From an uncultured Acidobacteriaceae bacterium (GTDB lineage Bacteria; Acidobacteriota; Terriglobia; Terriglobales; Acidobacteriaceae), in NCBI GenBank assembly GCA_963729675.1, contig CAVSOV010000014.1, forward strand, positions 162,181-226,180: 64,000 nucleotides of DNA, in the 5' to 3' direction. Of the stretch, positions 45,625 through 57,908 are shown one piece after another. The position numbers and the translations under genes were made by a program. The notes under the pieces are model-generated. The model was given only the letters and a program-made list of their open reading frames with translations. It did not search any database and was not told the DNA's origin. Within the stretch, counting starts at the first letter, position 1. Every line of letters starts with the position of its first letter.

Positions 45625-45792
45625 TTCGTCTCAAAGGGCCCATATACTGTTCTTCCCATCGTATATCGGTTCACGATAAAACAATTGCGTCATTTGGGGA
45701 GTCGTATCTGAACGAAGGTGTATGGTGCCGCCGCGAAAGATGGCGCTCGAATCAAAGAAAACAGCCACTTAGACTGTTTGCGAGGTATCCCG

Positions 45793-46764
45793 GTGCGTGT
45801 ATTCAAATTTCTGCTGTTGCTGATCGTGGTAGCGGCCGCGGCGCTCACATTTCTGTTCCTCGTGCCCTATGGGCCCAGATCGGAGCAGTTCGTCGACGTG
45901 GCGCCGGGAACGGGCACGCTGGCCATCGGCAAGCAGCTCAAGCAGGCGGGCGTTCTGCGCACCGGCTATGAGTTGGAGGCGCTGCGCCTCACCCGCGGCG
46001 GAACTCTCAAGGCGGGCGAGTACAGGTTCGATCATCCGGCAACGCCGCTGGAGATATACGACCGTATGCGCCGCGGCGATGTCTTCACGATCGCGCTCGT
46101 CATCCCAGAGGGCTACAACATCTTCGATATCGCCGGCGCGGTGCAGGCCGCAGGGCTTGACTCGAGCGCGAACTTCCTCGCGGCAGAGCGGCAGCACACG
46201 GAACTGATCTCCGCATGGAGCCCGCAGGCGGCGTCGCTCGAGGGATTTCTCTTCCCGGACACGTACAAGTTCAATCACCATTCCACGGAAGAGCAGATGC
46301 TGGGCGCAATGGTGAAGCGCTTCGCGGAGGTCGCCACGCAGCTGGGAATCTCACCTGCGGACGCGAAGCGAGTAGTCACGATGGCGTCGCTCGTGGAGCG
46401 CGAGGTGCGTGTCACCTCGGAGCGGCCGCTGGTCGCGGGCGTCTTCGAGAATCGGTTGCGCGCTGGAATGCCGCTGCAGACCGATCCGTCGGTCGTCTAT
46501 GCGTCCTTGCTCAATGGCACATGGACCGGCGTGATTCATCAGAGCGAGCTGCACTCGGACTCGGCGTACAACACCTACACCCATGTGGGTCTGCCGCCGG
46601 GGCCCATCTGCAACCCTGGCCTCGCGGCACTCGAGGCGGCCCTGCGTCCCGCGCAGACGGACTACATGTACTTTGTCGCAAATCCGGACGGGTCGACGAA
46701 GTTCGCGCGCCAGCTCGATGAACATAATGCGAACGTCGCGGTTTACCGGCACGAAACAAAGTAA
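45793..46764 (+). CDS. mltG: Endolytic transglycosylase MltG
   Basis: 'LKAGEY', 'IPEG', 'LEGFLFPDTY', 'ASLVERE', 'NRL..GMPLQTDP', 'YNTY..GLPPGPICNPG', 'YFVA'. Confidence 0.93.
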   Translation: MRVFKFLLLLIVVAAAALTFLFLVPYGPRSEQFVDVAPGTGTLAIGKQLKQAGVLRTGYELEALRLTRGGTLKAGEYRFDHPATPLEIYDRMRRGDVFTIALVIPEGYNIFDIAGAVQAAGLDSSANFLAAERQHTELISAWSPQAASLEGFLFPDTYKFNHHSTEEQMLGAMVKRFAEVATQLGISPADAKRVVTMASLVEREVRVTSERPLVAGVFENRLRAGMPLQTDPSVVYASLLNGTWTGVIHQSELHSDSAYNTYTHVGLPPGPICNPGLAALEAALRPAQTDYMYFVANPDGSTKFARQLDEHNANVAVYRHETK

Positions 46765-47018
46765 AGCTTCTTCGCCGCCTGAATACCGATAAACGGCGGC
46801 GGCGATTTCCACGAGGGTTACCGAAGAGGTACTTGGGGTATCACACTATGCACCCCAAGGCGTTGTGTCTTCAAGTGGGCCAAAAAGTCTCACCGAGAGG
46901 GATGTCTTGGCGCAAGCGAAGATTCGGCGAAATGTGAACGTATAACTCCCGCAATATATGCCCAACCCATTCTCTTGAAAAACCTTAGGTTTGTCGGTCT
47001 GCTGTGGGAAATTTCGCG

Positions 47019-47049
47019 TTGACAGGGGGGTGGGGGCGGGTTCTATAAC
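47019..47049 (+). promoter_or_regulatory. Putative sigma70 promoter for the Zn-finger/activator module
   Basis: TTGACA (47019-24) and TATAAC (47044-49); 19-nt spacer contains G runs whose length may be miscalled. Confidence 0.55.
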
Positions 47050-47054
47050 CGCAG

Positions 47055-47318
47055 AACTCCCTCAGTGGACGGCGGGCTCGGAGATTCGAAAATCCGGCGG
47101 CCGAGATCCAGACTCTGGGAGCAAGAAATGTTGGGGCCGGTGTCTCCCATGGACCGGCCTTACCCAACCGACACAAACAGACCCCAGGCTGGGGGCGGCA
47201 CTGCGCCGAGCAAGAGAGTGCAAACGCCTGTCAGCCGGGAGGTCTCAGCAGCCTGTACGAGCCCATCCGACCGCTCATTCGAGAGGCTCGTCAGGGGACG
47301 TGTGTACCTGGAGAGAAA
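47055..47318 (+). ncRNA. Candidate structured leader RNA
   Basis: Several long stems visible by eye (47130-47168, 47179-47245) and mutually exclusive pairings of 47257-47264. Confidence 0.5.
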
Positions 47319-47522
47319 ATGAAGCACTTTTGCGTTGATTTGAAGGTATGTGAGGGGTGTGGGGGCCTTTGGCTCCGCGCCCAGGAACGGATCCAGAACC
47401 ATGGGGTGTATTGCCGGAGCTGTGCGCTGCTGCTGTCGGAGTTTCCCGCTCCGCGCCAGCGCAGCCGGGCAGGACGCAAACGGAAGCTGCGGTTGGCCGT
47501 TTGTGAAGGGGGTTCGAAGTGA
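47319..47522 (+). CDS. Small Zn-finger-like protein (CxxC...CxxC, basic tail)
   Basis: 'CEGCG...YCRSC'; GGAGAG RBS; stop overlaps the next start (GTGA). Confidence 0.65.
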   Translation: MKHFCVDLKVCEGCGGLWLRAQERIQNHGVYCRSCALLLSEFPAPRQRSRAGRKRKLRLAVCEGGSK

Positions 47523-48226
47523 CGGCAGGAACCCGGTCGAATCAGTCGGTTGGAATTCAGGCGAATGAAACGGTGAGACGAGAGAGGAACGAGATGGCGG
47601 GGTCGGAAATACGGAAGGCAGTAAGCGGATTGCACCTGGTGCACGTTTCGCGCAGAGTGCTGGCAACGGAACTTCGCGAGGCGACAACCGGGCGGCCAGT
47701 GGCAGTACCCAGGATCTGGGCTGTCGCGGAGAACGTTTCAGCCCAGCCCAGGCGTGACCCAGCCGAGGCGATGCAGGCGCTCATTGCCGAAGGCCAGCCA
47801 GTTCCGCCGAAGCTCGAACTCGCCTTCTACCGCAAGTACACCGAGGCGATGCTCCGCCGCTATCTGCGCATGTCGATGGAGGTCGGCCGTGTGCCGTCGC
47901 TCATGGGCCGCGAGATGTTTCGCGGGCACGTCTCGCACTACAAGGTGGAAGGCTTCGACGACGGAGTCATCTTCTGCGTCGACGTCGAACGGTGCCTGGG
48001 CAAACTCCGGAAAACCGATCAGCACCTCATCCAGCGGATCGCACTCCAGGGCTACACGCAGGAGGAGGCAGCCCCGCTGCTCGGGCTGAGCGTCCGCTCC
48101 TGCATTGTGAAGTACGGGGAGGCGTTGGATCGACTTACAGAAATCTTTCTCGCTGGCCGTCTTTTGGAGCCTCAAAAATGTTGTCAAGACCCAGAAATGG
48201 TGGAAAACTGGCTAAACAACCTTTAA
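47519..48226 (+). CDS. Sigma-70 region 4/HTH-like transcriptional regulator, candidate late-gene activator
   Basis: C-terminal 'DVERCLGKL...LIQRIALQGYTQEEAAPLLGLSVRS....GEALDRL' matches the sigma-4-type HTH pattern. Confidence 0.65.
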   Translation: MTAGTRSNQSVGIQANETVRRERNEMAGSEIRKAVSGLHLVHVSRRVLATELREATTGRPVAVPRIWAVAENVSAQPRRDPAEAMQALIAEGQPVPPKLELAFYRKYTEAMLRRYLRMSMEVGRVPSLMGREMFRGHVSHYKVEGFDDGVIFCVDVERCLGKLRKTDQHLIQRIALQGYTQEEAAPLLGLSVRSCIVKYGEALDRLTEIFLAGRLLEPQKCCQDPEMVENWLNNL

Positions 48227-54590: not shown

Positions 54591-56133
54591 GTGGCGAAGA
54601 GACAGTTGGACGATGTTGAGGCACTGAGGGAGATGGGCCGCCGGATGGACCGGCGGCCCGATTATTTGATCGAGGTTTGCAGAGAGGACGCTGTGCATCC
54701 GCACCCGCGAGGGTCAGTTGAAGCGGCTGATTGCGAATCCTGCGCAGCGCGAGTTCGAGCAGAGATGCGGCCGGCAGAATATTGTGCTGAAGGCGCGGCA
54801 GATGGGCATCACGACGTGGGTGTCGGCGCGGTTCTTTCTGCGCACCATTACGAGGCCAGGTACGTTGACGTTGCAGGTCGCGCATACGCGCGAGGCCGCG
54901 GAGTCGATCTTTGCGACGGTGCGGAGGATGTGGGAAGGACTGCCGGATGATCTGCGCGAGGGCCCGCTGCGGTTGTCGCGTGCGAATGCGGGGCAGATGG
55001 TGTTCGGTGAGATCGACAGCGAGTTTCGCATTTCGAGTGCTGCGGAATTGAATGCAGGCCGCGGCCTGAGTGTGCAGAACCTGCATTGCAGCGAGGTGAG
55101 CCGATGGCCGGGCGATGCTGCAATGACGCTCGCGGGTCTTCGGGCGGCGCTCGCCCCGCGGGGAGAGATGGTACTGGAGAGCACGCCGAACGGAGCCTAT
55201 GGCGCGTTCTACGACGAGTGGTGTGCGGCTACGGATGAGGCGAATGCAGAGGACGGTGTGGTGCGGCACTTCTTCCCATGGTGGATGGAGCCGGAGTATC
55301 GCGGGCCGCTAGTTGCTGCTGATGCGATGAGTGCGGAGGAGCGTGGGTTGGTTGTAAAGCATGGCCTGAGCGCGGAGCAGATTGGCTTCCGGCGCGGGCT
55401 GGAGCGGACGTACGGTCTGCTTCGTGCGCAGGAGTTTGCCGAGGATGCGGAGACCTGCTTCCGTACGACAGGGGCCTGTTGCTTTGATGTCGATACATTG
55501 GACCAGCGGATGCGAGAGGCGCCGGAGCCGATCGAGAAAAGACGCAACGGAGCGCTGCAGGTTTGGCTGAGGTCAATTCCCGGTCGCGAGTATGTGGTTG
55601 CGGTGGACTCGGCGGGCGGAGGCGAGGAGGGCGACTTTGCGGCGGTGCAGGTGGTGGAGATTGCGACTGGGTTGCAATGTGCGGAGCTTCGCGAGCGGCT
55701 GCGGCCGGAGGATCTGGCGCGCGTCTCGGTAGAACTGGCGAAGGAGTACGGTGGCGCGCAGATTGTTGTCGAACGTAATAATCACGGTGCAGCCGTGCTT
55801 GCGTATCTGGAGACACGGGAAAGTTACAGGCGCTTGTACAGGCAGCATGGTGAGGTCGGCTGGCTGACGTCGGCGGCATCGAAGCCGGAGATTGTCGCGC
55901 GCATGGGAGTACTGCTGAGCGAGACGCCGGAGCGATTCATGAGCCGGAGGCTATTGGCAGAGTGCAGAACCTTTGTCGCGGATGAGCGCGGTCGCGCGGC
56001 TGCGGCGGCCGGGTCGCATGATGACCTGGTGATGGCCATGGCCATTGCGCAGGCGGTGCGGGCAGAGACCACTGCATGGAGCGGACGCGCCTCCGGCGCC
56101 CGACCAGTACATGCAGTGCAAGCGCGGGCATAG
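54591..56133 (+). CDS. Terminase large subunit, frameshift ~54677
   Basis: Walker A-like 'LKARQMGITT', Walker B-like 'LHCSEV', motif C 'ESTPNG', nuclease 'AVDSAGG', 'VERNNHG', 'HDDLVMA'; GAGGAG RBS before GTG 54591. Confidence 0.9.
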
Positions 56134-56200
56134 CACTGCTAACCTGCTAGTGACTACCCCGGCGAACAAGTTCGCAGGGGATCCCGTAAGGAGTCGGGCC

Positions 56201-57067
56201 TTGGCGGTTGTGGCGGTGCAGGCGATTCGCAGGATGCGCGGTGGCGCGCAGAGCCAGCTGATGCTGGGCGCGGACGGGAATCTGTGGGTGGTGAAGTTTC
56301 AGAACAACCCACAGCACCGCCGCGTATTGGCGAATGAACTGATTGCGACGCGACTGGCGGAGGCGATTGGGCTGTCTGTTCCAAAGAGCGATGTCCTCGA
56401 AGTGAGCGACTGGCTGATTCGCAACAGCCCGGGCATGGTGCTGGAGTTCGGCAAAGGTGTGCGTGAGCTTTGCGCGGCCGGGTTGCAGTTCGGGAGCCAG
56501 TTTGTCGGCGGGTTGATGCCAGGACAGGTAGTGGATTATCTGCCGGAGCCGCAGATGGAAGAGGTGCGCAATCTTGCGGAGTTCGCGGGGATTCTTGCGC
56601 TGGATAAGTGGACCGGCAACTGCAACGGAAGACAGGCGGTGTTCGAGCGGAGGCCGCGCGAGCGAAAGTATCGCGCGGTCTTCATCGACCAGGGATATTG
56701 CTTCAACGCGGGCGAGTGGAGTTTTCCGGACTCACCGCTGCGGGGAGTGTTCCCGCGCAACCAGGTCTATGCCCGCGTGACGGGCTGGGCCGGCTTTGAG
56801 CCGTGGCTGTCGCGGATCGAAGAGTTTGAAGCGGGCCGGCTGTGGGCGATTGCAGAGGAGGTTCCGCCGGAGTGGTACGGTGGCGACCTCGGGACGATCG
56901 AGCGGCTGATGGAGCAATTGCTGGCGCGGCGCAGCAGAGTGAGAGAGTTGATTGAGTCGTTTCGTGATTCGGATCGCGAGCCGTTCCCAAATTGGGGCGC
57001 AGCGAAAAGTATTGTTGTGCCGAGGCGCTTTGCAGTTGCAGGCGCGGCTGGCAATCTGGTGATGTAA
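56201..57067 (+). CDS. HipA-like Ser/Thr kinase (HipA_2 type)
   Basis: 'MRGGAQSQL', 'WVVKF', 'LANE', 'LDKWTGNCNGRQ', 'FIDQGYCF'; AGGAG RBS before TTG 56201. Confidence 0.8.
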   Translation: MAVVAVQAIRRMRGGAQSQLMLGADGNLWVVKFQNNPQHRRVLANELIATRLAEAIGLSVPKSDVLEVSDWLIRNSPGMVLEFGKGVRELCAAGLQFGSQFVGGLMPGQVVDYLPEPQMEEVRNLAEFAGILALDKWTGNCNGRQAVFERRPRERKYRAVFIDQGYCFNAGEWSFPDSPLRGVFPRNQVYARVTGWAGFEPWLSRIEEFEAGRLWAIAEEVPPEWYGGDLGTIERLMEQLLARRSRVRELIESFRDSDREPFPNWGAAKSIVVPRRFAVAGAAGNLVM

Positions 57068-57086
57068 CCTCGGCGGGGAGTGTCTG

Positions 57087-57908
57087 TTGGCGGAGCGGGT
57101 ACAGTGCGAGTTCTCTCTCATCCGGTATGTGCCGGATGTGGTGAAGGGAGAGTTTGCGAACATTGGCGTGGTGCTGCGCGAGGCGGGAGGTGCGGCCGGC
57201 GCGACCGTGCGATTCACACGCGACTGGAGTCGCGTGCGGTGCCTGGACCCGAATGCCGATGTGGAGCTGTTGGAGTCTCTGGAATCGGAGATTGCGGAGC
57301 GTCTGCGCGCAGGAGTTGAGCCGCGCGTGAACGCGAAACCCATGCTCGAACTATTGGAAGACACGCTTTCGAACAGCGTGCAAGTGACAGAGATGCGTGG
57401 GACGCTGGCGGAGAGTGTGCCAGCGGAGCTGGAACAGTTGATGCGGATGTATGTGGAGCCGCTCAAGGTTCCGGCGGTCCGCCGGAAGACGAGCGGGCGC
57501 ACGGCGATCGCAGGCAGGATGCGCGATGAGTTTGAGCGCGCCGGCGTGTGGGGGCTAATGCGGAAGCGAATCTCGGCCGCGCAGTACACGCGGCCGGGTG
57601 ATCCGCTGAAGATCGACTGCGGCTACCGGAACGGGCGCGTGCGCATGTTCCAGGCGGTGTCGCTGGAGAATGACGCGGAGGCGGCGAAGGGGCTCGCATT
57701 CTCGGCGGAGGCGCTGCGAGCGGGCGTGAGCCGAGTGGAAGGCATCGAGCTGGAGCTGACCGCGGTGATTGAGCCGATCACGTCAGTGGGGGATACGGAG
57801 ATGTATGGATTTGGCGTGGGAGCGATGGAGAGCGCGGCGATCCGTGTGCTCACCACGGCCGATCTCGGACGAGTTGCCGAGACGGCGCGGCGGGAGTTGC
57901 GAGTGTAA
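57087..57908 (+). CDS. DUF3037-domain protein, HipA-like kinase partner
   Basis: 'FSLIRYVPDVVKGEFANIGVVL' is the DUF3037 N-terminal signature. Confidence 0.85.
   Translation: MAERVQCEFSLIRYVPDVVKGEFANIGVVLREAGGAAGATVRFTRDWSRVRCLDPNADVELLESLESEIAERLRAGVEPRVNAKPMLELLEDTLSNSVQVTEMRGTLAESVPAELEQLMRMYVEPLKVPAVRRKTSGRTAIAGRMRDEFERAGVWGLMRKRISAAQYTRPGDPLKIDCGYRNGRVRMFQAVSLENDAEAAKGLAFSAEALRAGVSRVEGIELELTAVIEPITSVGDTEMYGFGVGAMESAAIRVLTTADLGRVAETARRELRV

Follow-up and report, generated by a model that had tools for sequence, protein, structure and literature searches.

Described gene transfer agents (GTAs) use long leaders and post-initiation control (PMC11150451; bioRxiv 10.1101/2024.11.20.624540). 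In Bartonella, the bgtA-K leader attenuates the expression of GTA genes and produces heterogeneity (bioRxiv 10.1101/2024.11.20.624540), and the GTA promoters of Caulobacter require IHF (PMC11150451). Two structured RNAs confined to Acidobacteria, Acido-1 and Acido-Lenti-1, are listed as not cis-regulatory (PMC2864571). In Rhodobacterales, LexA has been linked to GTA control. The Acidobacteriaceae, which are among the commonest bacteria in soil, carry a vertically inherited phage-like cluster.

We analyzed a stretch of 64,000 nucleotides from an uncultured Acidobacteriaceae bacterium (the window), in which a preliminary description had proposed a leader RNA upstream of a Zn-finger/activator operon. 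The locus resembles the Bartonella BaGTA bgtA-K leader/BrrG system in that a long non-coding leader lies behind a constitutive-looking promoter (bioRxiv 10.1101/2024.11.20.624540). Judged by sequence comparison, the leader is a real, previously undescribed, lineage-restricted structured 5' leader RNA with a traceable origin. Together with a predicted SOS box upstream, it gives a handle on the trigger of the phage-like cluster; the two predict DNA damage as an input and identify which bases could be changed to activate the cluster in cultivable strains of Granulicella or Edaphobacter.

The locus and its operon

The leader and the two genes that follow it are arranged as follows:

47055-47318, forward strand: leader segment, between mltG (45718-46764) and a 67-codon Zn-finger gene
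47319-47522, forward strand: Zn-finger gene, 67 aa, CxxC..CxxC with an Arg/Lys-rich tail; first gene controlled and candidate binder of the leader
47519-48226, forward strand: gene of a sigma-70 region-4 HTH protein (weak PF08281 match, Atlas neighbours); candidate activator of the phage-like cluster

The stop and start codons of the Zn-finger and sigma-4 genes overlap, and the two are coupled by SD+ATGA in many orthologues. The phage-like cluster lies 7 kb downstream of the operon, beyond two host-type genes, and contains tail-fibre-like, terminase and portal genes. Terminase was found in 68 of the 101 genus genomes, often on the same strand, with terL 1.4-12 kb downstream of the operon. HipA-like kinase and DUF3037 genes lie between terminase and portal (window 56045-57908). 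In several genus genomes (G020, G417, G418 and G023, for example), the terminase match is broken in two near residue ~175 inside one long open frame, which suggests that something has been inserted in frame, for example an intein or an HNH domain.

Of the 301 family genomes, 209 carry the Zn-finger gene, as do 74 of the 101 genus genomes, and outside the family the gene is almost absent. The family tallies include two unpublished genomes (G085 and G062) that contributed no sequence to the analysis; the latter was also part of the covariance-model search described below. The relatives carrying the same element have record titles of Granulicella, Bryocella or uncultured Acidobacteriaceae. Six further records are titled as other phyla yet bear the Acidobacteriaceae locus, likely from mislabelled or mixed bins.

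The four Cys of the Zn-finger protein are invariant across homologues, and structure prediction and fold searches of this protein gave no clear match. All 120 Zn fingers in leader lineages carried the basic tail, compared with 35 of 73 in the terminator lineages described below, a distribution that fits a link between the Zn finger and the leader. The tail is often RGRP, as in the DNA-binding AT-hook; therefore, it need not bind RNA. At six orthologous loci, the first nine Zn-finger codons are present as 1-2 tandem repeats at the N-terminus.

Promoter and upstream operator

Three elements were located upstream of the leader:

47019-47049, forward strand: sigma-70-type promoter TTGACA / 19 nt / TATAAC, with the -35 at 47019-24 and the -10 at 47044-49
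46916-46931, forward strand: SOS box of the LexA type with the direct repeat GCGAA-N6-GCGAA, 103 nt before the -35
47003-47011, forward strand: weak word resembling a DnaA box, immediately before the -35, with one mismatch to consensus in the window

The predicted start site falls at about 47055-56. The promoter is kept in 67 genus orthologues, and both the sister genus and the terminator-type relatives have one like it; its spacer is 19 nt in the window and 17 nt in 38 of the 67 orthologues. The DnaA-box-like pattern was satisfied in 26 of the 67, and 27 of the 67 contained an IHF-like word between the LexA box and the -35 (window 46960-47011).

The GCGAA-N6-GCGAA repeat is very likely a LexA box; thus, DNA damage is predicted as an input. 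Orthologous LexA-type boxes lie at about -103 at 64 loci. The same box occurs in this genome before lexA, an IMS/UmuC/DinB-type polymerase gene, rmuC and a radical SAM gene, so that at the sequence level one operator is common to lexA and repair genes, as in a LexA (SOS) regulon. The copies elsewhere in the genome (contig positions C1:201612, C9:200551, C18:159893, C12:11291 and C13:175753) give a genus-level LexA consensus and regulon members. The C13 copy sits between the -35 and -10 ahead of a small gene of no known function, and recA has only a degenerate copy. At three orthologous loci, the box has moved from -103 to the classical repressor position, lying on the -10 in two (L094 and L097) and on the promoter in the third (L364).

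Fold of the leader

We compared 70 distinct leaders of the genus (Granulicella-type Acidobacteriaceae) with approximately 10 from the sister genus. Four hairpin domains, P1-P4, were common to both:

47057-47121, forward strand: P1, long irregular 5' hairpin beginning at the predicted 5' end; fold kept, sequence variable
47130-47168, forward strand: P2 hairpin with a pyrimidine-rich loop (47142-52) complementary to the ribosome-binding region
47179-47245, forward strand: P3, long hairpin whose tip consists of a stem, a C47207-G47216 pair, a bulged A47217 and a variable loop
47252-47295, forward strand: P4, covarying hairpin with a bulged A47284 and a near-invariant unpaired segment (47268-73)
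47307-47314, forward strand: Shine-Dalgarno (SD) and conserved CCU flank, the flank kept in the sister genus though the SD itself has shifted

The sequences quoted in the preliminary description, including the TTGACA...TATAAC promoter, were all found in their places. The 265-nt leader as a whole is not unusually stable relative to shuffles (MFE -107.9, z -1.24; orthologue mean z -1.1), but single domains are when taken in their own windows (z of -1.2, -1.8, -2.9 and -2.0 for P1-P4, respectively). P1 showed base pairs at 0.91-0.93 and a mean z of -1.9 over 42 orthologues. The hairpin proposed at 47130-41/47153-68 corresponds to P2 and was recovered with a pair probability of ~1.0 in its upper stem; P2 was 86% paired in 17 orthologues. 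The proposed long stem 47179-202/47217-45 was likewise recovered in its lower part (P3 lower stems, 0.85-1.0), whereas its top register, GCACT/AGTGC, was 75% paired in orthologues as against 98% for the register 47202-07/47216-22, in which three of six pairs showed two-sided change. The P3 tip motif was present at this position in 37 of 42 and 10 of 10 orthologues, compared with 18.3 and 4.6 in shuffles.

The strongest comparative evidence came from P4, whose stem 47257-63/47285-91 has a pair probability of 0.95-0.98. The preliminary description had offered the pairing of 47258-64 with 47285-91 near the ribosome-binding site as one of two alternatives; it corresponds to this covarying stem. 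Across 57 sequences, P4 was 88.7% paired with two-sided changes in 10 of 12 pairs, a level matched by 0 of 500 shuffles. Seven independent events on the same branch were counted, where 2.0 would be expected (p 0.002); p rose to 0.07 with the most generous null, in which every co-change counts as compensatory. The unpaired loop CGACC is 97-100% conserved, and a search across orthologues found no conserved pairing partner for it. A pairing of this loop with sequence past the Zn-finger stop codon forms in the window and is not conserved.

The other local elements that had been proposed fared less well. The small GATT-CGAA-AATC hairpin has a probability of 0.01-0.02 and falls in the variable tip of P1, and the pairing 47077-81/47101-05 is minor (0.09). 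The repeated motif GAGCAAGA does occur twice in the window, but 3.2 copies are expected by chance and both lie in segments that vary between orthologues. What stood of the proposed cis-regulatory RNA was thus a conserved, covarying, single-copy leader tied to the Zn-finger/sigma-4 operon, not the switch helices and the motif named for it.

The leader region contains no tRNA or tmRNA. No intrinsic terminator (GC hairpin and U-run) was found on the forward strand between the leader and the start codon; therefore, the leader is most simply a 5' leader, and an independent small RNA, which had also been suggested, is less likely. A leader-peptide attenuator was considered and rejected, as orthologues do not keep the 85-codon frame that ends at the start codon: its length ranges over 1-91 codons and the peptides are unrelated.

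Two groups of leaders depart from the common form. In a subgroup of 14, P1 is different, the pyrimidine P2 loop is missing and the P4 loop is degenerate; several of their Zn-finger genes are without SD+ATGA coupling to the next gene. Two natural short leaders of 162 and 171 nt (L009 and L010) keep the 5' hairpin and P4 and have lost most of P2-P3.

Distribution and identity of the leader

Rfam 15 gave no match at or above the gathering threshold in the window and none in 10 orthologous loci, and a local Rfam search returned only chance matches (E 2.5-6.9). No description of this leader was found in the papers searched. A search of 185,579 genomes with the P4 pattern gave 36 matches, 34 of which directly precede a Zn-finger gene; the same pattern had no matches on viral contigs. 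The element is single-copy in the genome, which together with the Rfam result sets it apart from a genome-wide repeat, a mobile element or a known housekeeping RNA.

With a covariance model, the leader was present in nine of nine sister-genus loci tested and absent from the other genera tested, bar one. A search of 150 family genomes with this model found two others. Its filters missed sister-genus copies that were found with the filters off; thus, the range of the leader is a lower bound. The leader shows what is expected of a structured cis-regulatory leader, namely a conserved fold with compensatory changes and a fixed position and orientation downstream of a promoter. Its range is narrow and the cis-regulatory role putative.

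The P2 loop and the ribosome-binding site

The P2 loop may pair with the ribosome-binding site, a possibility to which we assign somewhat less than an even chance. The bases concerned are 47147-52 in the loop and 47307-11 at the site. In the window, the free duplex of the loop with this region reaches -10.1 kcal/mol. Over 56 leaders, matched loop/site pairs gave -7.96 kcal/mol, compared with -7.43 kcal/mol for permuted pairs (p 0.006), a result that rests on about four clades and is driven by CCAGG/CCUGG in one clade versus CAAGG/CCUUG in the sister genus. One clade-level compensatory change gives the pairing weak support. Within the genus alone, we found no covariation between loop and site (p 0.40), and the best duplex of the SD with upstream segments was no better than shuffles in any group (mean z 0.11). 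Because of these two results, and because one subgroup is without the loop, we treat the pairing as only a lead. Two further pairings, one joining the P2 loop to the G-run that follows P4 and one joining the 5' end to the SD, showed no covariation and were set aside.

Terminator-type relatives and the origin of P4

Deeper-branching relatives (Sulfotelmatobacter-type Terriglobales) have a similar promoter, behind which lies a gene of 67 codons that weakly matches DUF2292 (E 0.025). After this small gene come a fixed sequence, a 4-bp purine-loop hairpin, an intrinsic terminator and then the Zn-finger gene. Among 80 terminator-type loci, a U-run was present in 74 and the small open reading frame in 69, and the Zn-finger gene was next in 72 of the 76 with room for it. 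The small hairpin of the relatives covaries (100% paired, U-A to C-G in 6 of 25), and it cannot form in the sequence of the window. An antiterminator pairing GGUCA/UGACC in these relatives was considered and dropped, since by eye it is broken in many sequences.

The terminator of the relatives opens with CGAGCCC, as does P4, and GACCG is often at the same place. In 36 of the 70 genus leaders, a profile of the terminator 5' flank reached its highest score where P4 lies; the similarity is short and modest (7.7 in the window, compared with 4.2 for the best shuffle). The U-run after P4 is absent in the window and most orthologues and is still present in a few genus members (L083 and L092). In the tree of the sigma-4 protein, the 54 rows without the terminator-type layout form one 100/98 branch under a midpoint root only. 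Outside this branch, 18 of 18 genomes yielded the small DUF2292-like gene, compared with 0 of 35 inside it and 0 of 101 in the genus. We infer that P4 is probably the old terminator minus its U-run, with P1-P3 occupying the space of the lost gene; the direction of this swap, from gene and terminator to leader, depends on the midpoint root. Cases in which the replacement of an attenuator made of a protein and a terminator by an all-RNA leader can be placed on a tree are rare, and this locus would be one. Neither this terminator ancestry nor the LexA box is part of the preliminary account.

The DUF2292-like protein (67-69 aa) is conserved, with 4802 clusters, and belongs to the relatives (L212:175-378; L227-L306) rather than to the window. 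Its gene is always followed by a fixed AT-rich word, CAGG, the 4-bp purine-loop hairpin and the terminator. Structure prediction and fold searches of the protein gave no clear match; it is possibly a small antiterminator or autorepressor. The predicted hairpin and terminator behind this gene are a second undescribed RNA motif. The window's leader adds one undescribed structured RNA motif, and this second motif may explain the role of DUF2292 proteins.

Possible explanations of the leader

The explanation that we prefer, and to which we give an even chance, is that the leader would be a cis-acting 5' UTR of the Zn-finger/sigma-4 operon that acts after initiation, senses a protein and keeps the operon nearly off. 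Release of LexA after DNA damage would permit transcription of the operon, and the leader would then hold output down. Translation is the most likely level for this, through pairing of the P2 loop with the ribosome-binding site. A protein recognising the P4 loop and/or the P3 tip would change the state of the leader. The first candidate for this protein is the operon's own basic-tailed Zn-finger protein, a tentative choice that is less probable than the loop pairing. Its binding would feed back positively on the operon, so that a few cells would switch in an all-or-none manner, after which the sigma-4 protein would turn on the gene-transfer-agent-like cluster that lies 7 kb downstream. The putative self-activation by the Zn finger is the most attractive detail of this model. 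Against the model as a whole stand the host genes that separate the operon from the structural genes, the putative nature of the sigma-4 activator role and the 14-leader subgroup, in which the P2 loop motif is missing and P4 is degenerate. A bolder version, quite unlikely in our estimation, would make the leader an RNA-level bistable switch of a gene transfer agent that is itself new. The leader would have taken the place of a small protein and a terminator in a single evolutionary step; it would mask the ribosome-binding site by loop pairing and be opened by the operon's own Zn finger, with SOS committing a few cells to particle production.

The leader could instead act on transcription elongation, P4 and its 5' flank being a pause or a nut-like factor-loading site at which a protein lets polymerase pass factor-dependent termination. 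The probable ancestor of P4, an intrinsic terminator behind a 4-bp hairpin that covaries around a fixed purine loop, points this way, as do the U-run retained after P4 in L083 and L092 and the antitermination of the Caulobacter and Bartonella GTAs, the latter with a terminator in a long leader. However, the window and most orthologues have no U-run after P4, the small hairpin cannot form in the window, the operon is short and a typical Rho loading site would be less structured than this leader, so we consider this explanation unlikely. Somewhat less probable still is that the structure merely stabilizes or processes the mRNA, or yields a stable leader fragment, and senses nothing, all control being at the promoter. 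The freely varying sequence of P1-P3, their extensive deletion in L009 and L010, the modest whole-leader z (mean -1.1) and the SOS box already at the promoter would agree with it, but stability alone leaves the 97-100% conserved unpaired loop and the recurring bulged-A motif unexplained.

A riboswitch-like reading had also been put forward, and a new riboswitch class that binds a metabolite or an ion would account for a long structured 5' leader with conserved unpaired bases and a possible pseudoknot onto the ribosome-binding site. We regard this as very unlikely: the few conserved bases are spread over separate hairpins, there is no conserved multi-way core, the range is narrow (two genera) without an Rfam match, the downstream genes regulate phage-like genes rather than metabolism, and P4 resembles a terminator. 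Conserved unpaired bases and bulged-A motifs that are distributed over different hairpins seem closer to protein sites than to a ligand pocket. The switch originally proposed, in which 47258-64 alternates between 47074-80 and 47285-91, is the least probable of all and close to being discounted. It offers seven perfect pairs in this one genome, and the constrained fold is only 3.4 kcal/mol worse; yet the 47074-80 pairing makes up 2% of the ensemble (probability 0.018), is 54.6% paired with zero two-sided changes in the 17 closest orthologues, no better than shuffles, and would neither cover nor uncover the ribosome-binding site directly.

Comparison with known systems

The terminator-type relatives resemble the lambdoid pR-cro-nutR-tR1-cII region in that a promoter, a small gene, a fixed sequence with a small purine-loop hairpin, a terminator and regulators follow one another, and the Arg-rich tail on the Zn finger recalls the partner of boxB, N; tR1 is Rho-dependent. 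Unlike the lambdoid layout, the lineage of the window has lost the small gene and the U-run, and the likeness drawn here is one of layout. As for a nut-type site, the small purine-loop hairpin covaries in the relatives and does not form in the window, and the Zn-finger tail may be an AT-hook. The system also resembles Com and the mom leader of phage Mu, as a small Zn-finger protein on the same transcript could open a structure that masks a ribosome-binding site. Com acts on the ribosome-binding site of a downstream gene, whereas here a 265-nt leader is concerned, and the Zn-finger protein had no match to the Com family.

Acido-1 (RF01686) and Acido-Lenti-1 (RF01687) are, like this leader, structured RNAs confined to Acidobacteria (PMC2864571), and neither matched the leader even at E up to 10. 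The Bartonella leader precedes the capsid operon and its terminator is bypassed by a Q-like protein, whereas here the leader precedes a putative activator, the lineage of the window is without the U-run and no Q-like protein was identified. In Caulobacter, gafYZ is repressed by RogA, not LexA, the elements described are DNA sites and that study reports no structured RNA leader motif (PMC11150451). The leader therefore belongs to neither system, given the missing U-run and Q-like protein and its position before a regulator. Shared with the gafYZ control of CcGTA (PMC11150451) are an operon of two regulator genes kept off by a repressor, an operator lying far upstream and control exerted after initiation; the likeness to GafY/GafZ drawn here concerns the layout and control of the operon.
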